DNA from: Clostridiales bacterium
GTDB taxonomy: Bacteria > Bacillota > Clostridia > Christensenellales > Aristaeellaceae
Assembly: GCA_015056255.1 (NCBI GenBank)
Contig: SVGP01000023.1
Location: 1-24,000 of the forward strand
Length of the DNA: 24,000 bases
Direction of reading: 5' to 3'
In this document: positions 2,511 through 23,707 of the stretch, piece by piece
Position numbering within the stretch: the stretch's first letter is position 1
Layout: each line of letters begins with the position of its first letter
Notes under the pieces: generated by a model
What the model was told of the DNA's origin: nothing
Databases searched by the model: none
What the model saw: the letters and a program-made list of their open reading frames with translations, nothing else
Program-made: the position numbers and the translations under genes

Positions 2511-2525
2511 GATTTGTTCCTCCTA

Positions 2526-2924: not shown

Positions 2925-2968
2925 AAACGTATTTCCTCCTATTTCACATCAATTCCGGGCACTGGAAA

Positions 2969-3553: not shown

Positions 3554-3631
3554 TGAATTCATTCAATTTTTACACAAGAATTTCCAACATCCCGCACAAA
3601 AATCAGGTGATATGAAAGAAATTAATTCTCA

Positions 3632-3657
3632 AATCGGATTTTTAGCATAATCCGATT
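3632..3657 (-). terminator. Weak hairpin after mnmA
   Basis: AAUCGGAUU, an 8-nt loop, then AAUCCGAUU followed by UGAG on the minus strand. The stem is AT-rich and the U-tract is short, so it may be only a partial terminator. Confidence 0.3.
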
Positions 3658-3660
3658 CAT

Positions 3661-4674: not shown

Positions 4675-4749
4675 AATTTCCTCCGTGCGCAAATTTGCCG
4701 ATTCTTACTTATTATAATCATACCACAAAACCGCTCTCATTGCAAATGC

Positions 4750-4778
4750 GTGCAATTTGATAAGATGTATGATATACT
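4750..4778 (+). promoter_or_regulatory. Possible extended -10 promoter for the sulfatase gene
   Basis: GTGCAA, a 17-nt spacer ending in TGA, then TATACT (4773-4778). The -35 element is weak. Confidence 0.35.
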
Positions 4779-4806
4779 TAAGTCACTTTCAGGAGGTGCA
4801 TTTTTC

Positions 4807-6315: not shown

Positions 6316-6317
6316 TC

Positions 6318-6359
6318 AAAAAATGGACTTCTGCATTCTTATGCAAAAGTCCATTTTTT
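6318..6359. terminator. Bidirectional intrinsic terminator between convergent genes
   Basis: AAAAAATGGACTT, a 16-nt segment with an inner TGCA/TGCA stem, then AAGTCCATTTTTT. The A-tract and T-tract flanks suit both strands. Confidence 0.75.
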
Positions 6360-6361
6360 GA

Positions 6362-7717: not shown

Positions 7718-7756
7718 ATCTTCACCTCCCGGGAAAATGCATACATACACATATAC

Positions 7757-7785
7757 ATTATACAATAAACCCGAAAAAAACACAA
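7757..7785 (-). promoter_or_regulatory. Possible extended -10 promoter for the LRR protein gene
   Basis: The minus strand reads TTGTGT, a 17-nt spacer ending in TGT, then TATAAT (7762-7757). Confidence 0.4.
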
Positions 7786-7790
7786 CACCG

Positions 7791-7835
7791 CACAAAATAA
7801 ACCCGCCGTCCGAAACATCTGCAGACGGCGGGTTT
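7791..7835 (-). terminator. Intrinsic terminator ending the long T-box-controlled operon
   Basis: The minus-strand RNA reads AAACCCGCCGUC, a 13-nt loop, then GACGGCGGGUUU followed by AUUUUGUG, starting 8 nt after the gamma-subunit stop. Confidence 0.75.
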
Positions 7836-7842
7836 GTGCTTT

Positions 7843-8376
7843 TTACAGCTCGTATCCAAGCGAAATCGCTTTTTTATTAAGCTCAATCAGGTTCTGTCTC
7901 TTTGCGGAAACGACCTTCTGGATGGTTTTGTCGATGGCTTCTACCGGGAACATGCTTGTTTCCTTGAGCATTTTGCCCATGATGATCATGTTTGCCAAGG
8001 TCGCCATGCCCTCTTCGCCCGCAATTTTGGTGGCGGGGATGCCGAAGGCCTTTACGTCTTCGCGCTTGACCTCGCGGTCAATCAGTGAGGAATCGTAGAA
8101 GATCATGCCGCCGGGCGTGACCGCGTCTTCAAACTTATCGAGCGAGGGAAGGTTCATCGCGATCAGCACGTCCGGATTCGGAACGAGGGGCGAGCCGATG
8201 GGGGTATCCGAAATGATGACGGAGCAGGAAGCCGTGCCGCCGCGCATTTCGGGGCCGTAGGAGGGAAGCCATGTGACTTCCTTGTTTTCAAGAAGGCCCT
8301 CATAGGCCAAGAATTTTCCGGTAAACAGAACGCCCTGTCCGCCGAAGCCGGAGATTAAGATATTCACTTGTTTCAT
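7843..8376 (-). CDS. 2-oxoacid:ferredoxin oxidoreductase, gamma subunit (VOR/KOR family)
   Basis: [19 protein letters not shown]...[16 protein letters not shown] is the characteristic gamma-subunit signature. A 4-nt ATGA overlap with the beta subunit indicates translational coupling. Confidence 0.9.
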
Positions 8377-9125
8377 TTTCCGGCCTCCTCCGCGTACTTA
8401 TCCTTGTAAACGCCTAAAGGATAATACGGCATCATGTTTTCCTCCAGCCACTTAAGCGCCTTATCGGGCGTAAGACCCCAATTGGTGGGGCAGGTAGAAA
8501 GAACCTCGATCAGGGAAAAGCCCTTGCCCTCAAGCTGATACCGGAAGGCCTTTTTGATGGCGCGGGCGGCGTTTTTAACGTTCTTGACGTCGTTTACAGC
8601 AACGCGCTCAAGGTAAGCAGCGCCGGTAACATTGCTTAAAAGCTCGCAGACCTTTACAGGATAGCCGACGGATTCAACCTGTCTTCCATAAGGAGAGGTC
8701 TGGGTGACCTGTCCGGGCAGCGTGGTCGGGGCCATCTGACCGCCAGTCATGCCGTAAATGGCGTTGTTTACGAAGATAACGGTGATGTTTTCGCCTCTGG
8801 CTGCGCTGTGCACGGTTTCTGCAGTGCCGATGGCGGCAAGGTCGCCATCACCCTGATAGGTGAAGACGATGTTATTGGGATCAGCGCGCTTTACGCCGGT
8901 GGCGACTGCGGGCGCGCGGCCATGAGCGGCCTGAACCATGTCGCAGTTGAAATAATTATAGGCAAATACAGAGCAGCCGACGGGGGCCACGCCGATGGTT
9001 CTGCCTTCGATGCCCAGTTCGTCAATGGCCTCGGCAACCAGGCGATGAATGATGCCGTGGGTGCAGCCGGGGCAATAGTGAAGTTTTACATCCGCAAGCG
9101 CTTTCGGCTTTTCAAATACGATCAT
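8373..9125 (-). CDS. 2-oxoacid:ferredoxin oxidoreductase, beta subunit (TPP-binding)
   Basis: YCPGCTHG Cys motif and GDGD...AIG...N TPP/Mg-binding block (YQGDGDLAAIGTAETVHSAARGENITVIFVNNAIYGMTGGQ). Confidence 0.92.
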   Translation of the reverse strand: MIVFEKPKALADVKLHYCPGCTHGIIHRLVAEAIDELGIEGRTIGVAPVGCSVFAYNYFNCDMVQAAHGRAPAVATGVKRADPNNIVFTYQGDGDLAAIGTAETVHSAARGENITVIFVNNAIYGMTGGQMAPTTLPGQVTQTSPYGRQVESVGYPVKVCELLSNVTGAAYLERVAVNDVKNVKNAARAIKKAFRYQLEGKGFSLIEVLSTCPTNWGLTPDKALKWLEENMMPYYPLGVYKDKYAEEAGK

Positions 9126-10196
9126 TTACTTATCGCCTCCATTCTTGGCTGCTGCTTCTTCAATGGACTGAAGTACCTGTTCGGGAGTGGGGATCATGCC
9201 GCCGGTACGGGAGCAGAGGGTCACGGGGCGCGAGCAGCGGATGGCAAGCTCGACATCCTCAATCATCTGGCCCATGTTAAGCTCGACCGAAATAAACGCC
9301 TTTGCGGTCTTGGCCTTTTCGAAAAGAACCTTCTTCGGGAACGGCCAAAGGGTGATCGGGCGGATCATACCGGCCTTGATGCCCTTTTCGCGCGCAGCGA
9401 CGATGGCGTTTCTGGCAACACGGGCAGCCACGCCGAAGGCGACGACCACGATGTCCGCGTCATCCGCCATGAATTCTTCGTACATCGCTTCGTTTTCTTC
9501 GATTTCCTTGTACATGGCATATCTTTTGATATTCCACTGCTCAAGCTCTTCCGGAAGCAGCGACAGGGAGTTTACGATGTTGTGGGTTCTTTCTCCCTTG
9601 GTGCCGGTGACCGCCCAGGGCTTATCGTACGCCTTGACTTCGCCCATGTCGAGGGAAACCGGCTCCATCATCTGACCCATAGTGCCGTCAGCAAGGATCA
9701 TGGTGGTCATGCGGTATTTGTCGGCAAGGTCAAAGCCCTTGAACACCAGGCTCGCCATTTCCTGAACGGATGCGGGCGCGAGCACCAGCATTCTGAAGTC
9801 GCCGTGTCCTGCGCCGCGGGTGGCCTGAAAATAGTCGGACTGGCTGGGCTGAATGCCGCCAAGGCCGGGCCCGCCCCTCTGTACGTTTACAATCAGCGCG
9901 GGAAGATCGCAGCCGGCCAAGTAGCTGATGCCTTCGCTTTTTAAGGAAATTCCGGGGCTGGAGGAGGAGGTCATAACGCGCTTGCCGGCGGAGGCAACGC
10001 CGATGACCATATTGATGGCGGCGACTTCGCTTTCCGCCTGAAGGAAGGTTCCGCCGATCTGGGGCATGCGCTTGGCCAGATACGCCGCAACCTCCGTCTG
10101 AGGCGTGATGGGATAGCCGAAATAATGGCGGCAGCCGGCCATGATGGCGGCTTCAGCCAGGGCTTCGTTGCCCTTCATAAGCACTTTATCTGCCAT
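9126..10196 (-). CDS. 2-oxoacid:ferredoxin oxidoreductase, alpha subunit
   Basis: MKGNEALAEAAIMAGCRHYFGYPITPQTE is the conserved alpha N-terminus. Start set at ATG 10196 (MADKVLMKG). The longer ORF would overlap the delta gene. Confidence 0.9.
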   Translation of the reverse strand: MADKVLMKGNEALAEAAIMAGCRHYFGYPITPQTEVAAYLAKRMPQIGGTFLQAESEVAAINMVIGVASAGKRVMTSSSSPGISLKSEGISYLAGCDLPALIVNVQRGGPGLGGIQPSQSDYFQATRGAGHGDFRMLVLAPASVQEMASLVFKGFDLADKYRMTTMILADGTMGQMMEPVSLDMGEVKAYDKPWAVTGTKGERTHNIVNSLSLLPEELEQWNIKRYAMYKEIEENEAMYEEFMADDADIVVVAFGVAARVARNAIVAAREKGIKAGMIRPITLWPFPKKVLFEKAKTAKAFISVELNMGQMIEDVELAIRCSRPVTLCSRTGGMIPTPEQVLQSIEEAAAKNGGDK

Positions 10197-10207: not shown

Positions 10208-10414
10208 CTACCTTTCCACAGTGATCACGCAGTCCGGGCACATGGTGGCGCAGAAAGCGCAGCCGATGCACTTTTCAGGTTCCGTGACCTTTGCCGGGTG
10301 ATGTCCCTGCTGGTTTAATTTCGTTTCGTCGAGCGCGACGATTTTCTTGGGGCATGCGCCCACGCAAAGGCCGCAGCCCTTGCATCTTTCCTCGCGGAAC
10401 GTTACTTTTGCCAT
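10208..10414 (-). CDS. 2-oxoacid:ferredoxin oxidoreductase, delta subunit (2x[4Fe-4S] ferredoxin)
   Basis: Two CxxCxxCxxxCP motifs: CKGCGLCVGACP and CIGCAFCATMCP. 68 aa. GGAGGAA ribosome-binding site. Confidence 0.9.
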   Translation of the reverse strand: MAKVTFREERCKGCGLCVGACPKKIVALDETKLNQQGHHPAKVTEPEKCIGCAFCATMCPDCVITVER

Positions 10415-10432: not shown

Positions 10433-11101
10433 TCAATAGATCGCCCATTCGTCGCGGAAATGGAGCCGGATGGGCATGGGATGAACCACTTTGCCTTTGA
10501 TTTCGTTTATCAAATCCTCGCGGACGGTCGTGCCCAGAAGCGGAAGATTTGTTTTTTCGGAAACCTCTCTTGCAAGCGCGTCCGTTTCTGCGATATCCGA
10601 AACCGCAGTCATTTGTCCGAGATTGGAATTGTTGAGAAGGGCCGTAACTTTCATGCCGGAAGCGGTTTCCACTTCCCGAAGCACGCTGATCAATTGATCC
10701 GCCGTCCTCGTAAGCGGACGATAGAAGTTCATCACGAACACCATTTCGTAATCGTCCTCCGCCATTAAGGAAGGCGCGAGCCGTCCAAGCGCAAGCGCGC
10801 CTCTGTCGTCACCGCCAACGTCCACAACCGCGTGCGTTTGCTTGTCGTCGATGATCCTGTACATCTCTTCGGGCAGCGCGGGCACGTCCACATTGGTGTT
10901 TGCGTAGCTTGAAACCACGATTTCCACGCCCGCATCCTTCAGCGCCTTTTCGCTGTCTCTCGTTCTGAAATACGGGTTAACGATGTCAAGATCCGCTATC
11001 AGCGTTTTAAGGCCTTCTTTTTTGAGTCCCAGCGCGTAATTGACCGCGATATTGGTTTTGCCGCTTCCGTAGTGGCCTGAAAAAAGCGTTACTCTTTTCA
11101 C
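10433..11101 (-). CDS. P-loop NTPase of unknown function (MinD/ParA/CooC-like SIMIBI fold)
   Basis: The Walker A-like motif is FSGHYGSGKTNIAVNYA, followed by LIADLDIVNP and VVDVGGDDRG (Walker B-like). The GTG start abuts the ilvE stop (TAAGTG). No closer family is recognisable by eye. Confidence 0.7.
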   Translation of the reverse strand: MKRVTLFSGHYGSGKTNIAVNYALGLKKEGLKTLIADLDIVNPYFRTRDSEKALKDAGVEIVVSSYANTNVDVPALPEEMYRIIDDKQTHAVVDVGGDDRGALALGRLAPSLMAEDDYEMVFVMNFYRPLTRTADQLISVLREVETASGMKVTALLNNSNLGQMTAVSDIAETDALAREVSEKTNLPLLGTTVREDLINEIKGKVVHPMPIRLHFRDEWAIY

Positions 11102-12215: not shown

Positions 12216-14729
12216 TTATTGATTTGAAAGGCCAAATATTTCCGCAGCTTTTTCGCGCATCTTGTATTTTTGAATTTTGCCTGCGTCGTTCATGATGAAT
12301 TTGTCTACAAACCACACGTACTTGGGCACCTTGTGGCGAGCCATATTGGCGCGGACATAAGCCTTTACGTCCTCTTCCGTCATTTCCTCGCCCTCGCGGA
12401 CAATGACGCAGGCCATAATTTCTTCGCCGTACTGCTTATCGGGAACGCCGATGACCTGAACGTCGGAAATTTTGTCATGCGTAATTAGGAATTCCTCAAT
12501 CTCGCGCGGATAAATGTTTTCGCCGCCTCTGATGATCATGTCCTTGAGTCTGCCCGTCACGCGGTAGTTTCCGTCCTTGTCGCGGATGCAAAGGTCGCCG
12601 GTGTGCAGCCACCCTTCCCTGTCGATGGCTTCGTATGTTGCGGAGGGCATTTTGTAGTAGCCCTTCATGATGTTGTAGCCTCTGGCTACGAATTCGCCCT
12701 GCTCGCCGTCGGGCAGCTCCTTTCCGGTTGCGGGATCGATGATCCTGCATTCGATTTCGGGAAGCGCGCAGCCCACGGTCTGGGTGCGAACGTCCAGAGA
12801 ATCCTCATAGCATCTGCTCATCGTGCAGCCGGGCGCGGCCTCCGTCTGACCATAGACGGATACGATGCCGGTCATGTTCATGCGCTTGGCCGCTTCCCGC
12901 ATGACGCTTTCGGGGCAGTTTGCGCCGGCCATGATGCCGGTTCGCATGTGGGAAAAATCGGTCTTTTCAAAGTCCGGATGCGAAAGCATGGCGATAAACA
13001 TCGTGGGAACGCCATTAAAGCAGGTGATTTTTTCGCGGTTCACGCAGTCCAGCGCGGGCTTGGGCGAAAAGTACGGAAGCGGGCACATGGTGCTTCCGTG
13101 CGTCATGGACGCAGTCATGGAAAGTACCATGCCGAAGCAGTGGAACATGGGCACCTGGATCATCATGCGGTCAGCGGTGGAAAGATCCATTCGGTCGCCG
13201 ATGCATTTTCCGTTGTTGACAACTCCCCTGTGCGTGAGCATGACGCCCTTGGGAAAGCCGGTGGTGCCGGAGGTATACTGCATGTTGGCAACGTCGTCGC
13301 CCTTGATTTCGCTTGCGCGCCTGTATACTTCCTCCAGAGGAACCATGGGCGCACGGTCCATCATTTCATCAAACGTTAAGCATCCTTCCATTTTAAAGCC
13401 GACTGTAACGACGTTTCTTAAGAATGGAAGCCTTTGGGCGTGCAGTGGCTGGCCGGGCTCGGTGTGTTCAAGCTCCGGGCAAAGGCGTTTGATGGTGTCT
13501 ACATAGTTGGAATCGCGGAAGCCGTCCACCATGATAAGCGTGTGGGTATCGGACTGACGCAAAAGGTATTCCGCCTCGGCAATTTTGTAGGCGGTGTTCA
13601 TGGTGACGAGCGTCGCGCCGATTTTTGTAGTCGCCCAGAAGGCGATGTACCACGCGGGCACGTTGGTTGCCCACACGGTTACGTGGCTGTCTCGCTTGAC
13701 GCCCAGAGAAATGAGCGCACGGGCGCAGGCGTCCACATCGTCCCTAAACTGGGAATAGGTGCGCGTGTAGTCGAGGGTGGTGTATTTAAAGCACAATTGA
13801 TCCGGGAATTCCTTGACCATTCTGTCCAGCACCTGCGGGAAAGTCATGTCGATCAAGCTGTCGTGCTTCCAGACATATTTTCCGGTGCCCGCTTTATTGA
13901 GATACAATCCCTGCTCCCATGCGGGCGCGGGCTCAAAGTTTTTGACAAAGGAGGCAAAGTGCGCATACACTACGCCCGGGTCGTCCACTTCCTTAAGCCA
14001 CTCGGGATCCCATTCGAGGGAATAAAAGCCGTCGTAGCTGACGCTTCTTAACGCGCCGAAGATTTCCTTCATCGGAAGCGTGCCTTCGCCGAGCAGGCAG
14101 TATTCTGATTTTCCATCCTTAACGACCGAATCCTTCAGGTGCACATGCTTTACATATGCGCCGAGATTGGTGATCGTCTTTTCGGGCTTTTCGCCCATCA
14201 GGCGGTATGGATGGTGCACATCCCACAAAGCCGCCAGATGATCGCAGGCAAATTCATTTAAAATGCCGACCAGGCGCGAAGTATCGGCAAATATGCCGCA
14301 GGTTTCAATAAGCAAGGTAACGTCCGCCTTTTCAGCAAGCGGCAGAACTTTTTTAACCAGTTCCTTTACGTTTTCGTTTTCCTTTTCCTCGCCCTCGCCT
14401 GTTGAAAGCGCGCGCAGGCGTACAAAGGGAGCGTTTACCTTATCTGCAAAGGCGATGAGGTTTTTAATTTCCTCAGCTCTTTTGCCGTCTTCATCGTTTT
14501 CTGCGGGGTTCATGCGCGCATCAAGGCAGGTGATCGTGAGCCCCAGCGCTTTTAAGGATCGAACGGTGTGGTCGATTTCACCCTTTTGAAACGGCGCGCC
14601 AACGCCCGTAAACCGGCTTTCGCCGATATCGTGAATCTCGATGCCGTCAAGGCGCATTTCCCTTGCCACCGACACAAAATCGGCAAAGGAAAAGCTGTTC
14701 CAGCCGTAGGTGGATACGGAAAGCTTCAT
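12216..14729 (-). CDS. Fusion protein with an N-terminal xylose-isomerase-like TIM barrel (sugar phosphate isomerase/epimerase family) and a C-terminal AMP-forming acyl-CoA ligase
   Basis: Residues 1 to about 265 show TIM-barrel features (LDGIEIH, LLIETC, HLKD, SLEW). From about residue 290 the sequence is FadD-like, with YTSGTTGFPKGVMLTH (A3/P-loop), GQTE, WLHTGDL, RLKDMIIRGGENIYPREIE and a C-terminal GKIQK lysine motif. It overlaps the upstream gene by 4 nt (ATGA). Confidence 0.85.
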   Translation of the reverse strand: MKLSVSTYGWNSFSFADFVSVAREMRLDGIEIHDIGESRFTGVGAPFQKGEIDHTVRSLKALGLTITCLDARMNPAENDEDGKRAEEIKNLIAFADKVNAPFVRLRALSTGEGEEKENENVKELVKKVLPLAEKADVTLLIETCGIFADTSRLVGILNEFACDHLAALWDVHHPYRLMGEKPEKTITNLGAYVKHVHLKDSVVKDGKSEYCLLGEGTLPMKEIFGALRSVSYDGFYSLEWDPEWLKEVDDPGVVYAHFASFVKNFEPAPAWEQGLYLNKAGTGKYVWKHDSLIDMTFPQVLDRMVKEFPDQLCFKYTTLDYTRTYSQFRDDVDACARALISLGVKRDSHVTVWATNVPAWYIAFWATTKIGATLVTMNTAYKIAEAEYLLRQSDTHTLIMVDGFRDSNYVDTIKRLCPELEHTEPGQPLHAQRLPFLRNVVTVGFKMEGCLTFDEMMDRAPMVPLEEVYRRASEIKGDDVANMQYTSGTTGFPKGVMLTHRGVVNNGKCIGDRMDLSTADRMMIQVPMFHCFGMVLSMTASMTHGSTMCPLPYFSPKPALDCVNREKITCFNGVPTMFIAMLSHPDFEKTDFSHMRTGIMAGANCPESVMREAAKRMNMTGIVSVYGQTEAAPGCTMSRCYEDSLDVRTQTVGCALPEIECRIIDPATGKELPDGEQGEFVARGYNIMKGYYKMPSATYEAIDREGWLHTGDLCIRDKDGNYRVTGRLKDMIIRGGENIYPREIEEFLITHDKISDVQVIGVPDKQYGEEIMACVIVREGEEMTEEDVKAYVRANMARHKVPKYVWFVDKFIMNDAGKIQKYKMREKAAEIFGLSNQ

Positions 14730-16120
14730 ACATTGGCCTCCCTGTAAACGATCTTGTTAAGGGCGTTTAAGTACGCGCGGATGGACGCTCCGATAATATC
14801 TGTGGAAATGCCGCGCCCGGAATAGAGCTTGCCGCCGTCGCGCAGCTTTACCAGCGCTTCGCCCATGGCCTCGCGACCGCTGGTTACGGACTGAATTTCA
14901 AAATCGTCCAATTCGTAGTGGTGACCGACGACATTTTCAATCGCCATGAACGCCGCGTCGATCGGGCCATCGCCTGCGGAGAGACCCTGAACGGTCTCGC
15001 CCAGCTTATCAAGAACGATATGCGCGGTGGCGCTGATAATATTTCCGCTGTTGACCACGTAGCTTGAAAGCTTGTAGGTCGGGGGTACCTGAAGGGCGAC
15101 GGATGCGATGATCGCATCGAGCTCTCTTGCATCCACAGGCTTTTTGAGGGACATATTCTGAAACGCCTCAAACACCTTGGCAAGGTCTTCGCTGGAAAGA
15201 TCGTAGCCTAAGAGGGATGCGGCTCTTGCGACGGACGCGATGTCCGCGTTTTTATCGAGTTCCTTTTTGGGCTGCGCAGGAACGGCCAATTCTGCGCCGT
15301 TTAACGATTCCTTGGGCATGGCGCGGTCGAATCTTGCAATCAGGCTGACGGCTCGCTTCAGTGCAGTTTTGTCCACGTTGATCGCGGCTCCGACCTTTTC
15401 ACCCCTTGCGCTTAAGATATTGGTCATCTCTTCAAGGCCAGGCTGATCGCCAGAGGCGCAAACCGTGATCTGGTTGGCTCCGGCGCGGACTGCTTCAAAC
15501 GCGCAGGCGCAGGCCATGGAGATGGCGTTTCCGGTCTTTACGCCCACGTTTCTTTCGTGAAGCTCGGGAACGGATACATAAAGGCCCTTGATGAACGCGC
15601 CGAATTCGTCCGGCAGCATTTCGCCTGCGTCGTCCGAAACGGTGATCGTTTTTGCGCCTGCGTTCACTGCGGTTTCAACCGCTTTCGCAAGGAAGCTTTC
15701 CTCAGCGCGGGTAGCGTCAAGGGCGGTGAATTCAACATCCTCAATATAAGCCGCAGCGGTTTTTACCATCTGCTCAATCATTTCAAGCATGGCAGCCGGC
15801 TTCTTTTTATACATATACTCCATCTGAACGATGGAAACGGGCAGTTTTACGTTCAGGCGCGCTTTTTTTGCGTCCTTTACCGCATTGTAGGCCGCTTCCA
15901 CTTCTTCCATATTGAGAACCGGGCAGGAAACAATGCTGTTTACGGTCTGCTGCGCAACGGACTTGATCAGAATTTCATTGGCCTTTGCGCCTGCGATTGC
16001 GCTGGTTTCGATCACGTCCACATGAACGCCGTCCAAAATGCGCGCAGTTTCCAGCTTTTCTTTGAAGCTCATACCCTGTTTCGCCGAAAGCGTCGTTTCA
16101 ACAAGTCTGATGGTTTTCAT
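14726..16120 (-). CDS. 2-isopropylmalate synthase-like protein with degenerate catalytic motifs and an intact LeuA-type C-terminal regulatory domain
   Basis: The HMGL-like barrel aligns by eye to LeuA. DTTLRDGEQ is replaced by ETTLSAKQG, the metal-binding HxH(NDLG) by VKTGNAIS, and no HESGIH block is present. The C-terminus (GDGPIDAAFMAIENV...GRGISTDIIGASIRAYLNALNKI) is a good LeuA dimerisation/allosteric domain. Start set at the second ATG (16120), 8 nt after AAGGAG. Confidence 0.85.
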   Translation of the reverse strand: MKTIRLVETTLSAKQGMSFKEKLETARILDGVHVDVIETSAIAGAKANEILIKSVAQQTVNSIVSCPVLNMEEVEAAYNAVKDAKKARLNVKLPVSIVQMEYMYKKKPAAMLEMIEQMVKTAAAYIEDVEFTALDATRAEESFLAKAVETAVNAGAKTITVSDDAGEMLPDEFGAFIKGLYVSVPELHERNVGVKTGNAISMACACAFEAVRAGANQITVCASGDQPGLEEMTNILSARGEKVGAAINVDKTALKRAVSLIARFDRAMPKESLNGAELAVPAQPKKELDKNADIASVARAASLLGYDLSSEDLAKVFEAFQNMSLKKPVDARELDAIIASVALQVPPTYKLSSYVVNSGNIISATAHIVLDKLGETVQGLSAGDGPIDAAFMAIENVVGHHYELDDFEIQSVTSGREAMGEALVKLRDGGKLYSGRGISTDIIGASIRAYLNALNKIVYREANV

Positions 16121-16162
16121 ATTCATATCTCCTTTGGCTCAATATGCGCTTGAATCAATGTT

Positions 16163-16461
16163 TTTCAAAAAAACACGCCCCGGAAACACCTGTTTCCGGG
16201 GCGACAATTTTATTATCGCGGTACCACCCGAATTGATTGCCGAAAAAGCAACCCTCTCATTTAAGGTTCCAATAAACCCTGCGCCAAGATAACGGGGCGA
16301 ACCGTGACGCCTTACTGAAGAAGTTTTTGAAATTCTCCGTTCAGGCATCCTGCTCGAGAAGGAGATGATTCCAATCACTCTGCGCCGCCTCGCACCAAAC
16401 ACGGCTCTCTTCAGCAGGTTGGAAAGGAACCTGGTTCCGTCATAGCATTTGATTTTGCAAT
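16163..16461 (-). promoter_or_regulatory. T-box riboswitch leader 1 (inferred specifier CUC, Leu) with terminator/antiterminator
   Basis: The minus-strand RNA has a K-turn (UGCUAUGAC GGAA ... UUCU CGAGCA), an AG bulge (AGAGAG) and a distal loop (UUUGGUGCGA). The T-box sequence AAUUCGGGUGGUACCGCG lies at 16234-16217. The antiterminator CGGG[UGGUACC]GCGA...UCGC-CCCG competes with the terminator GCCCCGGAAACA-GG-UGUUUCCGGGGC plus a U7 run (16203-16163). The codon at the canonical position is CUC (16364-16362). Confidence 0.88.
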
Positions 16462-16467: not shown

Positions 16468-16496
16468 ACTATACCATTTCAAGCGCAATTTGTCAA
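16468..16496 (-). promoter_or_regulatory. Sigma-A promoter of T-box unit 1
   Basis: TTGACA (16496-16491), a 17-nt spacer ending in TGG (extended -10), then TATAGT (16473-16468). Confidence 0.7.
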
Positions 16497-16554: not shown

Positions 16555-18876
16555 TTAGAGCTTGTTTCTCTGAATCTTGCCGCTTGTGGTCTTGGGCAAT
16601 TCATCACGGAAGACGACAATGCGCGGATATTTATAAGGCGCGGTCTTCTTCTTGACGTAATTCTGGATTTCCTTTTTAAGTTCCTCCGTAGGCTCCGTTC
16701 CCTTGGTAAGGACGATGCTCGCCTTGACCACCTGACCGCGGATTTCATCCGGCGCAGCGGATACGCCGCACTCAATAACATAGGGAAGCTCCATAATGAC
16801 GGATTCGATTTCAAACGGCCCGATTCGGTAACCGGAGGACTTGATCACGTCGTCCACGCGGCCCACATACCAGAAGTAGCCGTCTTCGTCCATCCACGCG
16901 GTATCGCCCGTGTGGTACATGCCATCGGAAACATCCAGAACCGGCTTTTTGAGCGTATTATCGTAGTATCCGCGCGTAAGGCCGCAGGGCAGGCCGTCTT
17001 CCACATGGATGACGATTTCGCCCGTTTCGCCGACGCCCACGCTCTTGCCCTCCGGATTTACAATGTCCACATCGTACAGCGGCACGGGTTTTCCCATGGA
17101 ACCGACCTTGGGCGTCATGCCGACGGTGTTTCCGATCATCATAGTGGTTTCCGACTGGCCGAAGCCCTCCATGAGGGATAAGCCCGTGGCCTTCTTGAAC
17201 TGGTGGAACACCTCGGGGTTCAGGGCCTCGCCCGCGATGGTCGCATGCTTGATGGAGGAAAGATCGAACTTCGAAAGATCCTCCTTGATCATGAAGCGAT
17301 ACATGGTGGGCGGCGCGCAGAAGGTGGTGATGTTGTATTTTTTGAACATCGGAAGGATATCGTTGGCGTCGAAGCGATCAAAGTCGTATACGAAAATCGC
17401 GCCTTCGCTCAGCCACTGACCGTAGAGCTTGCCCCACATGCTCTTGGCCCAGCCGGTGTCGGAAATGGTGTAGTGAAGGCCGTTGGGGTCGACGGTATGC
17501 CAGTAGTGGGCGGTAATGAAGTGGCCCAGCGGGTAGGTATATGTGTGGGATGCGATCTTGGGATAGCCGGTTGTTCCGCTGGTAAAGAACATGAGCATAA
17601 GGTCCTCGCCCTCGGGGCGTTTTTCGCCTTCCGGCACGGTGAGGGTAGATCTGAACATGCGGTATTCCGTGTCAAAGCTTCTCCAGCCATCGCGTTCGCC
17701 CTCAACCACGATGCGGTTACCAACAAACGGACACTCCTCAAGCGCAAGCTCCGCCTGATTGATGCAGTCGCCGACGCCGGTCACGATGACGGTGGAGACG
17801 CCGGCGGCAGTAAATCTGTAGGAAAGATCCTTTTTCAGAAGCTGGTTGGGTGCGAGGATTGCGATTGCGCCGATTTTCTGAAGCGCCATCATGATGATCC
17901 AGAACTGATAATGACGGCGGAGCATCAGAAGCACCTTGTCGCCCTTTTTGACGCCGATGGATCTGAAGTAGTTGGCGGCGCGGTTGGAAAGGCGCGAAAT
18001 ATCGGCAAAGGTGAAGCGGTTTTCCACGCCGTCGCGCGAAATGTGCATCATGGCCAGCTTTTCAGGGTTGTTCTTACCCAGCTCGTCCACAATGTCAAAG
18101 GCAAAGTTGAACTTTTCAGGATTTTTGAAGGAAATGGCTTTCAAAGAGCCATCGGGATTTTCAACCGCGTCCACCCACTTCGACCAGATGTGCTCGCCCT
18201 CGGGCGCAGTATGCACGGGCGCGGGCGCAATTTCGACCTTGGGAAGGGTCATCATGGGCTCTTTGACGGTGAGCTCCGGAATCGCATCGCCCGACGGATT
18301 TAAAACAATCGCGTAAAACAGGCAGTTTTCGCCGCCCACCGCGATCATGCCGTGGGGCTTGGAGGAGTCGTAATAGATGCTGTCGCCGGGGCCCAGAATC
18401 TCCCAGTGCGTTCCGACCTGCACCTTGAGCTTACCGGAAATAACGATATCGCATTCCTGGCCCTCGTGGCTGGTCAGTTCAATGTCCTGATACTGCGCCT
18501 CCTCGGAATAGGCGGCGTTTACGTACAAAGGCTCAGCGATTCGGTTTTTGAACTGCGCAGCGAGGTTATAGTACACCATGCCGTGCGCCTGCTCTATCCT
18601 CTGCCCCATGCCGTTTCTGGTTACGGTGTAGCCGGAAAGACGGGGGCTCGCGCCCTCGATAATATCGGTAACGTCAACATTCAAAACCAGCGCGCAGCGG
18701 TAAATAAAGGCGAAGTTCAGATCCGCCTTGCCCGCCTCGCAAAGTCTGTATTCCTCAATCGTAACGCCCGTCTTTTTGGCCATGCTCTCTTCGGAAATAC
18801 CCTCGATTTCACGAAGCTCCTTAATACGGCCTGCCATCTCCTGAAGCTTGAATTCCAGACCCGTCGTCTGATTCAT
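16555..18876 (-). CDS. HTH(XRE)-cupin-acyl-CoA synthetase fusion (AMP-forming, medium/short-chain ACS-like), paralog A
   Basis: Residues 12-72 form a Cro/C1-type HTH (RIKELREIEGISEESMAKKTGVTIEEYRLCEAGK). Residues around 105-195 form a cupin (SHEGQECDIVISGKLKVQVG...GDSIYYDSSKPHG). The remainder is an AMP-binding enzyme (FTSGTTGYPKIASHT, GFGQSETT, YHTGDTA, DDVIKSSGYRIGPFEIES, SGKIQRN). Start at ATG 18876, with AAAGGGGG 9 nt upstream. Confidence 0.9.
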   Translation of the reverse strand: MNQTTGLEFKLQEMAGRIKELREIEGISEESMAKKTGVTIEEYRLCEAGKADLNFAFIYRCALVLNVDVTDIIEGASPRLSGYTVTRNGMGQRIEQAHGMVYYNLAAQFKNRIAEPLYVNAAYSEEAQYQDIELTSHEGQECDIVISGKLKVQVGTHWEILGPGDSIYYDSSKPHGMIAVGGENCLFYAIVLNPSGDAIPELTVKEPMMTLPKVEIAPAPVHTAPEGEHIWSKWVDAVENPDGSLKAISFKNPEKFNFAFDIVDELGKNNPEKLAMMHISRDGVENRFTFADISRLSNRAANYFRSIGVKKGDKVLLMLRRHYQFWIIMMALQKIGAIAILAPNQLLKKDLSYRFTAAGVSTVIVTGVGDCINQAELALEECPFVGNRIVVEGERDGWRSFDTEYRMFRSTLTVPEGEKRPEGEDLMLMFFTSGTTGYPKIASHTYTYPLGHFITAHYWHTVDPNGLHYTISDTGWAKSMWGKLYGQWLSEGAIFVYDFDRFDANDILPMFKKYNITTFCAPPTMYRFMIKEDLSKFDLSSIKHATIAGEALNPEVFHQFKKATGLSLMEGFGQSETTMMIGNTVGMTPKVGSMGKPVPLYDVDIVNPEGKSVGVGETGEIVIHVEDGLPCGLTRGYYDNTLKKPVLDVSDGMYHTGDTAWMDEDGYFWYVGRVDDVIKSSGYRIGPFEIESVIMELPYVIECGVSAAPDEIRGQVVKASIVLTKGTEPTEELKKEIQNYVKKKTAPYKYPRIVVFRDELPKTTSGKIQRNKL

Positions 18877-18895: not shown

Positions 18896-19192
18896 GTCAA
18901 AAAAATCCGCCTCAAAGAAACATATCGTCTTTGAGGCGAATGAAAAAATCTTTCACACGCGGTACCACTCAAATTCACGCATTTTGAAAATGCGCCTCAC
19001 GGCTCCATCAAGCCGTTCTCCCTTTTCGCAGGCTCACGGGAGGCTCTACTGATTTCGGTCACCCGAAACGTTCTGCCGTCCGGCTCGGAAGCGACAAATT
19101 CTGCCTTCTCGTTACCGGCTCGCACCAAGCGCCGGCTCTCTGAAACGATTTTCCGTCAGAATCCTCTTCGTCATCGCCAATGATATGAAATT
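18896..19192 (-). promoter_or_regulatory. T-box riboswitch leader 2 (inferred specifier GUC, Val)
   Basis: The minus-strand RNA has a K-turn (GGCGAUGAC GAAG ... CUUC CGAGCC) and an AG bulge plus distal loop (AGAGAGCCGGCGCUUGGUGCGAGCCGG). The T-box sequence AAUUUGAGUGGUACCGCG lies at 18975-18958. The antiterminator is UUGAG[UGGUACC]GCG...CGC-CUCAA. The terminator is CGCCUCAAAGA, 9 nt, UCUUUGAGGCG, then GAUUUUUUU (18938-18896). The codon at the canonical position is GUC (19095-19093), followed by G. Confidence 0.88.
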
Positions 19193-19198
19193 AGAGAT

Positions 19199-19227
19199 AT
19201 GATACCACGAAGGGCGGAATCTGTCAA
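19199..19227 (-). promoter_or_regulatory. Sigma-A promoter of T-box unit 2
   Basis: TTGACA (19227-19222), a 17-nt spacer ending in TGG, then TATCAT (19204-19199), preceded by a T-rich UP-like tract. Confidence 0.7.
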
Positions 19228-19304: not shown

Positions 19305-19327
19305 AAAAATATAAGGAGGCGATGTGC

Positions 19328-19594
19328 ATGCCAGAACTAAGCAGGTTTGCCGGAATCATTGTCAAAATGATTTTCAACGATACCGTTCAACATAATAAAC
19401 CCCACGTTCACGTATATTACGGTGAATATCAGGCCTCCATCGGCATTGATGGCGAATTATTGGCAGGTTCACTGCCTGTAAAGCAGCTAAAAATGGTTGT
19501 TGGATGGCTGGCACTTCACGAAGAAGAGGCCTATGCTGCATGGAATAAGGCTGTACGCGGCGAACGCTTCGACAAGATCAAACCCCTGATTTAA
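19328..19594 (+). CDS. DUF4160-family small protein
   Basis: MPELSRFAGIIVKMIFND..HNKPHVHVYYGEYQASIGIDGELLAGSLP matches the DUF4160 pattern (MP.ISRF.GI.I.MY..DH.PPHFH). Start taken at ATG 19328, 8 nt after AAGGAGG. Confidence 0.8.
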   Translation: MPELSRFAGIIVKMIFNDTVQHNKPHVHVYYGEYQASIGIDGELLAGSLPVKQLKMVVGWLALHEEEAYAAWNKAVRGERFDKIKPLI

Positions 19595-19605: not shown

Positions 19606-19890
19606 ATGTATATTATTGACGGAATCGCATATGCATCCCAAAAAATGCAGGAAACATTCGTAACGGCAGTTAAACCGCTTGACGATATGATGATGATCGT
19701 CACATTCGGATCCGGCGAAAAACGATTGTATGACGCCTCTCAACTTCTCGATTTCCCAGCATTTCAACCCCTTAAAGATGAAACTGTTTTCATGAATGCA
19801 AAGGTGGAATATGGCGTCGTCACATGGGCGGACGGTGAAATCGACATTGCGCCGGAAACCATGTACGAAAACAGCTACGAATATCAATAA
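19606..19890 (+). CDS. DUF2442-family small protein
   Basis: The pattern (V.PLDD..L.V.F..GE.R..D...LLD.P.F.PL.D...F..V.V..G.V.W..GEIDIAPE.LYE) is typical of DUF2442. AAGGAG lies 7 nt upstream. The start is 11 nt after the DUF4160 stop. Confidence 0.8.
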   Translation: MYIIDGIAYASQKMQETFVTAVKPLDDMMMIVTFGSGEKRLYDASQLLDFPAFQPLKDETVFMNAKVEYGVVTWADGEIDIAPETMYENSYEYQ

Positions 19891-19984: not shown

Positions 19985-20995
19985 TCATTCCCCAAAGAAC
20001 ACTCTGGGCGTATTGATGATACAAAATGCAATAACATCCTTATAGCGTTTGGTTTTCCCTGTTTCCAATGATACACAGTATGCATCCGCGCCGTATAAGG
20101 CGCGCATCCTAAAATAAACAAGTTCCTTTCCGGCTTTCGATACGGCGATACCCGTTTCCGGCTCCAGCAAGGACAAAGTAATCGTTTTCCCTTTTCTTGT
20201 CTTATAGTCTTCAATTGTATTTTCCTGAACGGAATACATTTTGAGAACTCCGTCTTTGTCAATAAACAAAAGCGTATCGTCATTCAGCCATGCGGGCGCT
20301 TCCCCTTCGCCGATATCTCTGACATTTCCGTCTGAATCGATTATAACAATCCTGTCAGGCAGGATAATATACGGGAATGCAAAGGAATCCTTGGTTTCAT
20401 CAAGGATTGTTTCGTAATAGCTGAATGCAATCCTGCCGCTTGACGAAACCGTATTTGAAGTCGTGTAAGTGTATCCGCGATTATCCGCCGGCGAAACAGC
20501 CCCATTTAACATCGCCCATTCCGGCGGGCAAAAACACATCTGGTAATCAACATGCGGATAAACGAATGTATCTCCGTTTTTGTTTAAGCGAACATACTCG
20601 CAGCAATATTCCTTGTTTTCCGCCAATCGGCAATAGTAGTAATCATCTCCATGCGCCGCAAATACATGCAGAAGGTTCGGATCCTTTATGATGCAGTCCG
20701 TTTGGATGTTTCCGTCTTCATGGACAGTGAGGATTTCCGTTTCACCGATCTCAATATGTTCACGCGCAGCACGCACACCCACTTCTTCAGTAAAGCCCTC
20801 AATCAGATAAAAATCCGCAGGACATACATCCTCGGCATGCTTTTTCGAAAGATCCTGTTTTCTGAACAACTGCGGATGATCGTCATCATCATACTCCACA
20901 AAGAAAACAGTACCGGATATCCCTGACGCAGCACACGCAGGGAACATTGAAGTAAAAATCACCATGATCAAAAGCAGGCAGAATTTCTTTTTCAT
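19985..20995 (-). CDS. Secreted Cys-rich hypothetical protein
   Basis: Signal peptide MKKKFCLLLIMVIFTSMFPACA with an A-x-A cleavage site. GGAGGAA ribosome-binding site. The C-terminal half has beta-propeller-like repeats (IIDSDGNVRDIG, LFIDKDGVLKMY). No recognisable enzyme motifs. Confidence 0.7.
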   Translation of the reverse strand: MKKKFCLLLIMVIFTSMFPACAASGISGTVFFVEYDDDDHPQLFRKQDLSKKHAEDVCPADFYLIEGFTEEVGVRAAREHIEIGETEILTVHEDGNIQTDCIIKDPNLLHVFAAHGDDYYYCRLAENKEYCCEYVRLNKNGDTFVYPHVDYQMCFCPPEWAMLNGAVSPADNRGYTYTTSNTVSSSGRIAFSYYETILDETKDSFAFPYIILPDRIVIIDSDGNVRDIGEGEAPAWLNDDTLLFIDKDGVLKMYSVQENTIEDYKTRKGKTITLSLLEPETGIAVSKAGKELVYFRMRALYGADAYCVSLETGKTKRYKDVIAFCIINTPRVFFGE

Positions 20996-21113: not shown

Positions 21114-23390
21114 TTACAGAAGATTCCTCTGGATCTTTCCGCTGATGGTTTTGGGAAGCTCATCCTTGAAGACGACGATTCTCGGATACTTGTAGGGCGC
21201 GGTTTTGTGCTTTACGTATTCCTGAATTTCCTTTTTGAGTTCCTCGGTGGGTTCGGTGCCCTTGGTTAAGACGATGCTCGCCTTGACCACCTGGCCGCGG
21301 ATCTCGTCGGGGGCTGCGGAAACGCCGCACTCGAGGACGTAGGGAAGCTCCATGATGACGGATTCGATTTCAAACGGCCCAATGCGGTAGCCGGAGGACT
21401 TGATCAGATCGTCCACGCGGCCTACATACCAGAAGTAGCCGTCTTCGTCCTTCCATGCGGTATCGCCGGTGTGGTACATGCCGTCCGAAAGGTCGATTTC
21501 AGGAACGCCCTTTTCGTTGTTGTAATAGCCGAGAGTAAGACCCATCGGGGGCTTGCCGTCCTTAAGGCGCACGACGATTTCGCCGGTTTCGCCCTGCTGG
21601 ACGCTGTTGCCGTCGTGATCGACGATGTCGATGTCGTAATTGGGAACGGGCTTGCCCATGGAGCCGACCTTCGGGCGCATACCGACGAGATTGGCGATGG
21701 TAAGGGTGGTTTCGGTCTGACCGAAGCCTTCCATAAGGGAGATGCCCGTGGCTTTTCTGAACTGATAGAAGACCTCGGGGTTCAAAGCTTCGCCTGCGAT
21801 GGTGGCATGCTCAATGGAAGAAAGATCGTATTTGGAAAGATCTTCCTTGATCATGAAGCGATACATGGTGGGCGGCGCGCAGAAGGTTGTGATGTGATAC
21901 TTTTTGAACATCGGCAGAATGACAGAGGCGTCGAAGCGGTCAAAGTCGTATACGAACGTCGCCGCCTCGCACATCCACTGGCCGTAAAGCTTGCCCCACA
22001 GCGCCTTGCCCCAGCCGGTGTCGGAGATAGTGAAGTGAAGGCCATCTGGGTTGACGTTGTGCCAATATTTGGCGGTAGCAAAATGCGCAAGCACGTATTT
22101 ACAGGAGTGAGTTGCGATCTTGGGATAGCCCGTCGTTCCGCTTGTAAAGAGCATGAGCATGGGATCGTCGCCCTTGATGGAATCCTCCGTTCTCGGGAAG
22201 GTGGAGGAGAACATGCGGGCTTCGGTGTCAAAGTCGCGCCAGCCCTCGCGAACGCCGTCGACGATGATTCTGTGTTTTAAAGTCGGGCTGTCCTTAAGCG
22301 CCTTGTCTACTTCTTCTGCAACCTTTCCCGTGCCCGTACAGATGATAGCGGAAACGCCGGCGGCATTGAAGCGGTAGGTAAGGTCGTGTTCGACCAGAAG
22401 GTTGGTTGCGGGGATGACGATTGCACCCAGCTTATGAAGCGCAAGAATGGCCTGCCAGAACTGATAATGGCGGCGCAGAATCAGCATGACTCTGTCGCCC
22501 TTTTTGATGCCGAGGGATTTAAAATAGTTGGCAACGCGGGAGGAAGAGCGGGAAAGCTCGCGGAAAGTGAACTTTCTTTCCTCCATATTGCGGCTTACGT
22601 GAACCATTGCAACCTTATCGGGCTTCTTTTCGGCGATGGCGTCCACGATATCGAAGGCAAAGTTGAACTCGTCCGCGTTTTTGTATTTGATCTCCTTGAC
22701 AAGGCCGTTTTCGTCCTCAACGCCCTCGACGAATTTTTCATAAATTCTGCCCTCAGTGCGCTTGGCGGCGACGATGGTGTCCCTGATTTCGAGCTCCTCC
22801 GTCTCCTCGCCCGGCAGTACCACCGCGCAGAAATAGCAGTCCTGACCTTCCACCGCGATCATGCCGTGGGGCGTTGAGGAGTCGTAATAGATGCTGTCGC
22901 CTTCATGCAGGATCTCGGTATGCTCGCCCACCTGCACCTTCAGTGCGCCGGACATGATCAGGTCAAATTCCTGACCGCTGTGGCGGGTCAGATGGATGGG
23001 GCTTTTCTGCTGCTCGGGCGAATATTCGTATTTTACAAAATAAGGCTCGGCAATCTTCTTTTTGAAAAGCGGCGCAAGGGACCTGATTTCAAGGCCTACT
23101 TCGCGCGCGGTAACCGTGCCCTGGCCTTTTCTGGTAACGGTGTACTGGGTCAGGCGCGCGGATTTACCTTCCATAAGGTCGGTGATTTCAACGCCCAGTT
23201 CCAGCGCGCATTTGTGGATGAAGCTGAAGGGGAAGTCCAGCTGGCCGTCCTCGTACTGCACATACATTTCGAGGCTCACTTCCGTGCGCTCGGCCATTTC
23301 CTCCCTTGAAAAACCAGCGATTTCACGCAGCTCACGAATTCGGGCCGCCACCTCGAAGATTTTATTGGTCGCGTTGTTTGTCGCCTGCAT
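21114..23390 (-). CDS. HTH(XRE)-cupin-acyl-CoA synthetase fusion, paralog B
   Basis: Same three-domain layout as 16555-18876: RIRELREIAGFSREEMAERTEVSLEMYVQYEDGQ, then RHSGQEFDLIMSGALKVQVG...GDSIYYDSSTPHG, then FTSGTTGYPKIATHS...SGKIQRN. The C-terminal 90 aa are nearly identical to paralog A. Start at ATG 23390, with GGAGGG upstream. Confidence 0.9.
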   Translation of the reverse strand: MQATNNATNKIFEVAARIRELREIAGFSREEMAERTEVSLEMYVQYEDGQLDFPFSFIHKCALELGVEITDLMEGKSARLTQYTVTRKGQGTVTAREVGLEIRSLAPLFKKKIAEPYFVKYEYSPEQQKSPIHLTRHSGQEFDLIMSGALKVQVGEHTEILHEGDSIYYDSSTPHGMIAVEGQDCYFCAVVLPGEETEELEIRDTIVAAKRTEGRIYEKFVEGVEDENGLVKEIKYKNADEFNFAFDIVDAIAEKKPDKVAMVHVSRNMEERKFTFRELSRSSSRVANYFKSLGIKKGDRVMLILRRHYQFWQAILALHKLGAIVIPATNLLVEHDLTYRFNAAGVSAIICTGTGKVAEEVDKALKDSPTLKHRIIVDGVREGWRDFDTEARMFSSTFPRTEDSIKGDDPMLMLFTSGTTGYPKIATHSCKYVLAHFATAKYWHNVNPDGLHFTISDTGWGKALWGKLYGQWMCEAATFVYDFDRFDASVILPMFKKYHITTFCAPPTMYRFMIKEDLSKYDLSSIEHATIAGEALNPEVFYQFRKATGISLMEGFGQTETTLTIANLVGMRPKVGSMGKPVPNYDIDIVDHDGNSVQQGETGEIVVRLKDGKPPMGLTLGYYNNEKGVPEIDLSDGMYHTGDTAWKDEDGYFWYVGRVDDLIKSSGYRIGPFEIESVIMELPYVLECGVSAAPDEIRGQVVKASIVLTKGTEPTEELKKEIQEYVKHKTAPYKYPRIVVFKDELPKTISGKIQRNLL

Positions 23391-23417: not shown

Positions 23418-23707
23418 GAAAATAAAAAAACGCCCCAAAGAAACCACTGTTTCTTTGAGACGAAAATCACTTTATAGATTTCCGCGGTACCACTCAAATT
23501 GCGTTTGTCAAAAACGCCCCTTAACAGGCTCCATCAAGCCCTGCGCCTGTAACGCTGCGCCAGCGGGAAGAGACTACTGGAAAAATTTCATCCTTCCGGC
23601 TCGGGAGTGATGGGCACATTGACCATATGCTTTCGCCGGCTTTCACCAAGCGCCGGCTCTCTGTGGAAATGCATTTTGATCTGCCGTCTCCGTCATTGCT
23701 TTTCTTG
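23418..23707 (-). promoter_or_regulatory. T-box riboswitch leader 3 (inferred specifier AUC, Ile)
   Basis: The minus-strand RNA has a K-turn (AGCAAUGAC GGAG ... CUCC CGAGCC) and an AG bulge plus distal loop (AGAGAGCCGGCGCUUGGUGAAAGCCGGCG). The T-box sequence AAUUUGAGUGGUACCGCG lies at 23500-23483. The terminator is CGUCUCAAAGAAAC, 4 nt, GUUUCUUUGGGGCG, then a U7 run (23462-23418). The codon at the canonical position is AUC (23611-23609), followed by A. Confidence 0.88.

Follow-up and report, generated by a model that had tools for sequence, protein, structure and literature searches.

T-box riboswitches sense the charging of transfer RNA (tRNA), i.e., translational demand. In the transcriptional T-boxes of Firmicutes (Rfam family RF00230; e.g., Bacillus subtilis tyrS, glyQS, valS and the ilv-leu operon), Stem I carries a specifier codon followed by a purine, and its AG bulge together with its distal loop forms a platform for the tRNA elbow. 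Stem II and Stem III follow, and an antiterminator with a UGGNACC bulge, whose UGGN pairs with the 3' NCCA of the tRNA, competes with a terminator that ends in a U-run. Classical targets are aminoacyl-tRNA synthetases, classical biosynthetic enzymes or transporters. Here, we investigate a leader of this class at positions 18896-19227 of a 24,000-nucleotide (nt) stretch of DNA from a Clostridiales bacterium (assembly GCA_015056255.1, contig SVGP01000023.1, positions 1 to 24,000), which we call the window. An original prediction, made from the sequence alone, had proposed a Val-type T-box in front of a gene for a fusion of helix-turn-helix (HTH), cupin and acyl-coenzyme A (acyl-CoA) synthetase domains. 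The leader shares all of the above parts with the classical T-boxes. In contrast to them, it scores below the gathering threshold of RF00230, has a U-rich specifier loop and an extra conserved hairpin, and its target is an acyl-CoA ligase fusion. We consider it likely that this tRNA-Val T-box attenuates the transcription of an isobutyrate ligase, which would supply valine via 2-oxoisovalerate:ferredoxin oxidoreductase (VOR) and an aminotransferase.

The second system to which the locus compares is metabolic. The work of Allison et al. 1966, Robinson & Allison 1969 and Allison & Peel 1971, as cited in PMC7356843, is said to have found that rumen anaerobes carboxylate isobutyrate, 2-methylbutyrate and isovalerate to valine, isoleucine and leucine, respectively. 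The chemistry we propose is the same, i.e., an acid would be activated to its acyl-CoA, carboxylated in a ferredoxin-dependent step to the 2-oxo acid and finally transaminated. The habitat matches as well, with sheep, goat and buffalo gut as the source of the closest genomes. The classical rumen work was physiological, while the link to the genes studied here and their control by tRNA sensing are what we infer.

On the enzyme level, the closest described relatives are MacsMa and MbcS, synthetases for short or medium branched-chain acyl-CoA that both prefer alpha-branched C4/C5 acids (PMC10455477, PMC10026030). MacsMa prefers 2-methylbutyrate as substrate, and its Trp259 is critical for acyl-substrate binding (PMC10455477). 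MbcS of Staphylococcus aureus is selective for 2-methylbutyrate and isobutyrate, performs poorly on isovalerate and supplies primers for FabH (PMC10026030). The protein encoded in the window matches MacsMa along its full ligase domain, has MbcS as its best NCBIfam model and conserves the Trp of the acyl pocket. It differs from both by an N-terminal HTH-cupin module of about 250 residues, by its T-box control and by its linkage to VOR and aminotransferase genes.

Results

Leader architecture

Read 5' to 3' on the minus strand, 19227..18899 comprises a promoter-like site, the T-box leader and a terminator hairpin with U-run. That is, the originally predicted span 18896-19227 extends from the -35 hexamer through the end of the U-run. 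The respective features are:

19199..19227, minus strand: promoter-like site (TTGACA, 17-nt spacer, TATCAT, TG before the -10 hexamer; 11/12 consensus matches, a consensus match only)
18929..19183, minus strand: T-box leader, RF00230 match (covariance model, positions 1-219)
19082..19178, minus strand: Stem I (explicit structure and alignment)
19092..19095, minus strand: specifier codon GUC (19095..19093) followed by the purine G (19092) (covariance model and alignment columns)
19039..19081, minus strand: Stem II, GGA-(C)-GGC / GCC-UCC, internal loop AGAAC / CAGUAGA, upper helix of 7 base pairs (bp) with GUGA loop
19027..19038, minus strand: Stem IIA element CGU...GCG (covariance-model alignment)
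18999..19016, minus strand: extra hairpin ACGGCU-UGAUGG-AGCCGU, inserted between Stem IIA/B and Stem III when compared to the Rfam consensus
18977..18995, minus strand: Stem III, 8 bp with a 3-nt loop (folding and explicit structure)
18931..18972, minus strand: antiterminator with the T-box sequence, i.e., helix A1 UUGAG/CUCAA, 7-nt bulge UGGUACC (18967..18961) and helix A2
18899..18941, minus strand: intrinsic terminator, 14-bp stem AUUCGCCUCAAAGA / UCUUUGAGGCGGAU with 9-nt loop (stem 18941..18905), then U6 as U-run

In a search of 701 nt, the covariance model of RF00230 matches 19183..18929 (minus strand) over its full length with 75.4 bits and an E-value of 1.8e-16. The alignment to RF00230 that had been suggested as a check therefore yields a full-length match, but one below the family's gathering score of 93 bits. 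The shortfall concerns a score cut-off and not a structural feature, and Stem I, II and III, the antiterminator and the terminator are present.

The base of Stem I is formed by the helix GGC/GCC with a K-turn-like GAUGAC...CGA, such that GGC-GAUGAC-GAAG pairs with CUUC-CGA-GCC. Above it follow the helix GAAG/CUUC, the specifier loop and the helices UUCUG/CAGAA and UCGUU/AACGA. When UUCUG/CAGAA is paired, the loop retains AGGA as its 5' strand and UUU-GUC-G as its 3' strand, which is the geometry that had been described. The AG bulge AGAGAG is located at 19141..19136 (minus strand), and the distal helix CCGGC/GCCGG closes the loop GCUUGGUGCGA at 19130..19120 (minus strand). Within this loop, the motif UUGGUGCGA together with the AG bulge fits the consensus AGAGA...GGUGNRA. 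Overall, the K-turn, AGAGAG, the distal loop, Stem II, Stem III, UGGUACC and the terminator with U-run are all found on the minus strand where the original prediction had put them.

The UGGU of the antiterminator bulge implies A as discriminator base of the tRNA. The terminator hairpin is part of both the minimum-free-energy and the centroid structure. Its 5' arm and the 3' arm of the antiterminator have 18941..18931 in common, i.e., the two structures are mutually exclusive, and the label of a transcriptional T-box is thus right. The start codon of the regulated gene is located at 18876 (minus strand) and is preceded by GAAAGGGGG.

Conservation and specifier identity

Relatives were collected by a scan of one genome per species, which provided at least 599 matched stretches, and 80 loci were kept. 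All are from uncultured Clostridia (Oscillospiraceae, Acutalibacteraceae or others), many of them from the gut of sheep, goat or buffalo, with ruminant-gut Clostridia as the closest genomes. The exact protein sequence of the regulated gene is also present on public metagenome contigs with identical gene order. Among the related loci with enough upstream sequence, a T-box precedes the orthologous gene in 77/77. We aligned 78 orthologous leaders from Oscillospirales genomes using MAFFT, and the following leader statistics refer to this set.

For this alignment, RNAalifold found the terminator, the extra hairpin and Stems II and III, but of Stem I it found the distal helix and missed the lower ones. 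It also introduced a spurious long-range helix (columns 149-152 with 401-404), and we replaced its structure. Pair counts are thus based on an explicit T-box structure in place of the RNAalifold consensus. For the whole structure, 81.0% of the cells are paired, compared to 33-48% when the partners are slid by 1-3 columns. Changes on both sides are found in 48/66 pairs, and the covariation score is 0.384 vs. at most 0.142 for the slid controls. The leader is conserved far beyond chance.

The base and the lower helices of Stem I are paired in 99-100% of the cells, and the distal helix in 97.9% with all 5 pairs covarying. The helix directly under the specifier loop is 100% paired with 3/4 pairs covarying, which fixes the register of the specifier. 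For Stem II, whose S-turn sequence GAA...AGUAGA is present, the helices are 77% and 86% paired, and all 7 pairs of the upper helix covary. The drawing of Stem IIA reaches 43.6%; here, MAFFT shifts the stretch by one column between lineages. The extra hairpin (alignment columns 275-292) is 83.5% paired, 5/6 pairs covary, and its loop is partly conserved as UUGAUGG or UUGUUUG. A putative hairpin at this position is readable in the inserted stretches of the Ile and Leu T-boxes of the window. Antiterminator helix A1 is 100% paired and A2 84.7% (5 covarying pairs), while the terminator is 96.5% paired (6 covarying pairs) and the 12 nt behind it contain 7 U in the median. Both competing structures are thus conserved, in agreement with the complete transcriptional T-box that had been proposed. 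UGGUACC is present in 78/78 leaders, and the columns of AGAGA, GGUG..A and the UAGA of Stem II are invariant.

Within the specifier columns we find GUA in 65, GUC in 12 and GUG in 1 of the sequences. That is, G109 and T110 are invariant and the third base alone varies. The following base is G in 68 and A in 10 leaders, i.e., a purine in 78/78. In accordance with this, the covariance model puts GUC followed by G (window) and GUA followed by G (relative L011) at the specifier position. The original prediction had named a different specifier in the covariance model as a refutation; this did not occur, and its Val (GUC) specifier stands. Two alternative registers, UUG and UGU, were rejected because the positions in front of the codon are variable (UUU, CUU, GCG, UCG, CAU). 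A shift by +1 (UCG in the window) was rejected as well, since this register gives the stop codon UAG in 65 sequences. Given that only the synonymous third codon base varies, the Val assignment is firm and the other registers are excluded.

These data also bear on the possibility that the leader is a decaying T-box relic or that its specifier is not valine but one of UUG, UGU or UCG. Such a view can draw on the score of 75.4 bits below the gathering value and on the 3' side of the specifier loop, which departs from the consensus and has two bases inserted compared to the RF00230 model. On the other hand, no T-box element is lost from the 78 orthologous leaders, which show compensatory changes, and only GUN is conserved. 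We regard a relic or a non-Val specifier as highly improbable and, for practical purposes, as refuted by the comparative data; the alignment indicates that the leader is almost certainly a functional Val T-box.

Low scores are shared by the orthologues. None of the Val leaders is listed at the gathering score in ten loci (L005, L011, L016, L021, L028, L040, L043, L056, L071, L082), where they sit near position 5700-5990, while the Leu leaders present and two Ile leaders in the same ten loci pass it. The Val leader of L011 reaches 92.7 bits, compared to 75.4 in the window. The sub-threshold scores are probably due to the U-rich specifier loop and the extra hairpin. Since this Val subgroup falls just under the gathering score, threshold-based annotation misses the leaders and with them a clue to the function of the gene.

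Ligase domain and Ile-type paralogues

The gene controlled by the leader is:

16555..18876, minus strand: regulated gene, 773 amino acids (aa), predicted isobutyrate--CoA ligase (Pfam, PDB and NCBIfam matches)

Pfam reports HTH_3/HTH_19 (residues ~17-76), Cupin_2 (~133-190), a linker, AMP-binding (268-638) and AMP-binding_C (689-767), which agrees with the HTH, cupin and acyl-CoA synthetase parts originally named for the product. Residues 251-771 match PDB 3ETC, the structure of MacsMa of Methanosarcina acetivorans, with an E-value of 2.7e-176 and 592 bits. W481 aligns with Trp259 of MacsMa, and the YHTGD motif is kept. Among NCBIfam models, MbcS scores best with 426 bits, below its equivalog cutoff of 850. 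The family thus does not fix the substrate, and we file the protein as a relative of MbcS and MacsMa rather than as MbcS. Public names of the fusion are generic ('AMP-binding protein' or 'cupin domain-containing protein'), and a homologue search with the N-terminal domain mostly returned fragments, again with generic names.

The window contains a second unit of this kind:

23453..23705, minus strand: Ile T-box, AUC followed by A (RF00230, 102.2 bits)
21114..23390, minus strand: paralogous HTH-cupin-ligase, gene call of 758 aa, predicted 2-methylbutyrate--CoA ligase, 63% identical to the Val-type gene

Each ligase gene of the loci was assigned to a type twice and independently, by similarity to the two paralogues of the window and by the specifier of the upstream T-box. 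Val-type genes show GUA, GUC or GUG specifiers only, and Ile-type genes show AUC in 50/50 cases plus the window, such that 0 are discordant. An apparent AUC upstream of the Val-type gene of L009, an additional locus missed by the first pattern, turned out to be a false match on the 5' strand, and its true specifier is GUG. Many Ile-type leaders carry GCUG or GAUG in the distal loop in place of GGUG.

On the protein level, 16 alignment positions separate the Val-type from the Ile-type. Three of them are within the ligase domain, among them A477/G and M480/L (Val/Ile), which flank W481. MacsMa has Gly at the position equivalent to 477, as the Ile type does. From the sequences, such pocket-flanking differences would fit paralogues whose acid substrates differ in size, and the Ile unit suggests a counterpart to the Val unit that leads from 2-methylbutyrate to isoleucine.

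N-terminal HTH-cupin module

The other 13 separating positions (46, 54, 59, 60, 72, 73, 78, 97, 100, 102, 117, 193, 194) are located in the HTH-cupin module. A predicted model of residues 1-245 (18876..18142, minus strand; predicted local distance difference test score 81.5) shows five helices followed by a cupin barrel, and H137, E141 and H175 are invariant in 57 sequences. Among PDB entries, the XRE-cupin regulator 1Y9Q is nearest in sequence (E-value 8e-9). By Foldseek, the predicted module resembles 1Y9Q as well as the iron enzymes HppE, Psf4 and HEPD, which combine an HTH-like with a cupin domain, with template modelling (TM) scores of 0.33-0.43. That is, the two-domain fold is common to all of them and the His/Glu/His trio is conserved, but the superposition of the whole module is poor, and here it is fused to an enzyme. 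An HppE-like enzyme reading of the module was demoted to a possibility, since its sequence is nearer to the regulator 1Y9Q.

Given this, the N-terminal part might be the key product of the gene, i.e., a one-component regulator or the gate of an allosterically controlled enzyme, with the T-box merely raising its level. The cupin would then bind valine or a related ligand and control other branched-chain amino-acid genes; a variant takes it for an HppE-type metal enzyme domain. The 13/16 separating positions in the N-terminal part, the invariant H137, E141 and H175, and the similarity to 1Y9Q (best sequence relative) and to the folds of HppE, Psf4 and HEPD are in line with this idea. However, the ligase domain is the most conserved part, with a mean column identity of 0.83 vs. 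0.69-0.74 for the N-terminal domains, and shows a full-length, high-scoring match to an active synthetase. Furthermore, the HTH is a weak Pfam match, whose 22.9 bits do not exceed the cutoffs, and the above TM scores are low. We thus consider a primary regulator unlikely. It would also be compatible with a ligase acting in valine synthesis, i.e., it is an addition more than an alternative.

Gene cluster and neighbourhood

The cluster in the window lies wholly on the minus strand and consists of the Ile unit, the Val unit, a Leu unit, an aminotransferase, a P-loop gene and VOR. In addition to the units introduced above, it comprises:

16194..16452, minus strand: Leu T-box, CUC (RF00230), with its own promoter-like site at 16496..16468, bounding the Val unit downstream
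14726..16126, minus strand: LeuA-like protein, divergent, below all isopropylmalate-synthase cutoffs
12216..14729, minus strand: fusion of a TIM barrel (AP_endonuc_2, xylose-isomerase-like) and an acyl-CoA ligase of a different subfamily, 837 aa
11102..12166, minus strand: branched-chain amino acid aminotransferase (NF009897, 483 bits, cutoff 307)
10433..11101, minus strand: P-loop ParA/Mrp/CbiA-like protein, 222 aa (weak family matches)
10208..10414, minus strand: 2x[4Fe-4S] ferredoxin subunit, VorD (family matches)
9126..10193, minus strand: VOR alpha (VorB model NF005507, 531 bits, cutoff 399)
8373..9125, minus strand: VOR beta (family matches)
7843..8376, minus strand: VOR gamma (family matches)

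All genes of the proposed route, i.e., the ligase, the four VOR subunits and the branched-chain aminotransferase, are thus found together in the window. For the relatives, we counted the neighbourhood in 72 related loci with at least 1.5 kilobases downstream of the Val-type ligase. Here, VOR is located downstream of the ligase in 54/72. In 49/72, the next genes are the P-loop gene and then VOR (median gap 28 nt). An aminotransferase followed by VOR comes next in 5/72, and the LeuA-like unit, as in the window, in another arrangement found in 5/72. In most loci long enough to show it, an aminotransferase follows VOR. No cluster gene is found downstream of the ligase in 13/72.

The claim that the T-box drives a single-gene unit therefore holds in part. 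It applies to the window and its closest relatives, where a Leu T-box with its own promoter follows, but in most species the ligase heads a VOR operon. The original prediction had also placed the target outside the usual logic of T-boxes. This did not hold up: the ligase is tied to VOR and a branched-chain aminotransferase and is best read as an amino-acid supply gene, i.e., within that logic.

The same counts help to assess another use of the enzyme. The T-box may be real and Val-specific while the ligase serves lipid synthesis: a valine shortage would lower the amount of isobutyryl-CoA obtained from valine breakdown, and the cell would then salvage external isobutyrate as a primer of iso-even branched-chain fatty acids. 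This would fit MbcS as the best-scoring NCBIfam model, given that MbcS supplies FabH primers (PMC10026030), and the 13/72 loci where the ligase has neither VOR nor aminotransferase downstream. In contrast, T-boxes read tRNA charging and therewith the demand of translation. The ligase precedes VOR in 54/72 loci, usually together with an aminotransferase, which are needed for amino-acid synthesis but not for primers. Finally, each of the three ligase units has a T-box of its own, for Val, Ile and Leu, in a one-to-one match with the three amino acids. We therefore rate a lipid role as improbable, less probable even than that of a primary regulator, and retain valine supply as the preferred reading.

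For the Leu unit, the stop codon of the LeuA-like gene overlaps the start of the TIM-barrel-ligase fusion, and the same overlap is found in two relatives (L040 and L071). The two genes could form an isovalerate/leucine branch, which would fit the poor isovalerate activity of MbcS-type enzymes.

Some observations concern the remaining genes. The P-loop protein precedes the VOR ferredoxin subunit, after either the ligase or the aminotransferase, in 54 VOR-bearing loci; it may act for VOR in the delivery or maturation of iron-sulfur clusters. In the window, the Ile unit is separated from the Val T-box by a DUF4160/DUF2442 pair (19322..19594 and 19606..19890, both plus strand) and by a 336-aa protein (20995..19985, minus strand) that matches no family. 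In other loci (e.g., L005 and L006), the Ile-type ligase is directly followed by the Val T-box, such that these three intervening genes look inserted. Within 785..4692 and 4171..7795 we find rpoA, the ribosomal proteins S4, S11 and S13, an MnmA-like tRNA thiolase, a sulfatase with SGSH_C domain and a BspA-type leucine-rich-repeat protein with DUF6273. The remainder of the window thus codes for housekeeping and surface functions, on a chromosome of Clostridia type.

Discussion

The mechanism we propose for the Val unit is as follows. RNA polymerase would start near 19199-19227, and Stem I would expose GUC for pairing with the tRNA-Val anticodon. An uncharged tRNA would, with its free NCCA 3' end, pair with UGGU and stabilise the antiterminator, such that the 14-bp terminator is blocked and the gene is transcribed. 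With charged tRNA-Val, the terminator would form and transcription would end before the gene. The encoded ligase, of the adenosine-monophosphate-forming (AMP-forming) type, would activate isobutyrate to isobutyryl-CoA, which VOR would reductively carboxylate to 2-oxoisovalerate, and the aminotransferase would convert the latter to valine. That is, a shortage of valine would switch on its synthesis from an abundant fermentation acid of the gut.

The individual parts of this scheme differ in what they rest on. The tRNA-dependent read-through is expected from the leader's architecture. The acyl substrate is suggested by the relatives of the ligase, the specifier of the T-box, the neighbourhood of VOR and aminotransferase genes, and the Val/Ile residues beside the Trp of the pocket. 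The direction of the flux follows, in our interpretation, from the induction on uncharged tRNA-Val and from the AMP-forming, i.e., activating, type of the ligase. Taken by itself, the isobutyrate-to-valine role of the ligase appears reasonably probable to us on these grounds.

Several observations weigh against this scheme. With regard to the leader, it is absent from the Rfam scan of the whole window at the gathering threshold (75.4 vs. 93 bits), where only the other two T-boxes (23705..23453 and 16452..16194) are listed. Across orthologues, the 3' side of its specifier loop is U-rich (UUU-GUN-R) and lacks the S-turn GAA. No tRNA gene is found within the 24,000 nt of the window, hence there is no cognate tRNA-Val(GAC) for comparison. 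With regard to the enzyme, the MbcS model stays far below its equivalog cutoff, and the HTH-cupin module, though conserved, has no role in the pathway scheme. With regard to the cluster, the ligase is without any downstream cluster gene in the 13/72 loci mentioned. Moreover, VOR and aminotransferase of the window are located behind the Leu and not the Val T-box, which leaves an induction by valine limitation alone unexplained, and the promoter scan of the window provides no minus-strand promoter-like site ahead of the aminotransferase/VOR block.

Beyond the Val unit, the three T-boxes of the window (Val GUN, Ile AUC, Leu CUC) invite a broader but clearly more tentative idea. [quoted passage not shown] The latter is motivated by the location of most paralogue-distinguishing residues within the module and by its invariant His/Glu/His. 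Such a sensor could act via end-product feedback or DNA binding and would be layered on the sensing of tRNA.

The RNA mechanism is ordinary for the T-box class. What is new is the target and what the three specifiers imply for an unannotated cluster. The T-box regulon surveys PMC2494555 and PMC3766115 and the TBDB preprint do not contain the term acyl-CoA; PMC2494555 and PMC3766115 also lack the terms CoA, oxidoreductase and CoA ligase/synthetase. In the full-text literature searched, we found no paper that ties T-boxes to acyl-CoA ligases, VOR or isobutyrate, although a prior description is possible, and none that assigns the activation step of the rumen route to these genes or reports a control of this route by tRNA sensing.

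In more general terms, the specifier of a T-box is a built-in functional label, which assigns an amino acid to a generically named protein. Here, the label and the neighbouring genes turn an anonymous cluster, with at least 599 matched stretches among species-representative genomes, into a testable pathway from isobutyrate, 2-methylbutyrate or isovalerate to valine, isoleucine or leucine, respectively. This is of relevance for understanding the dependence of fibre-degrading gut anaerobes on branched-chain volatile fatty acids and for the supplementation of ruminant feed. If true, the three-T-box regulon would provide the genetic basis of a 60-year-old rumen observation and, with the HTH-cupin-ligase fusion, an enzyme with a built-in one-component regulator.

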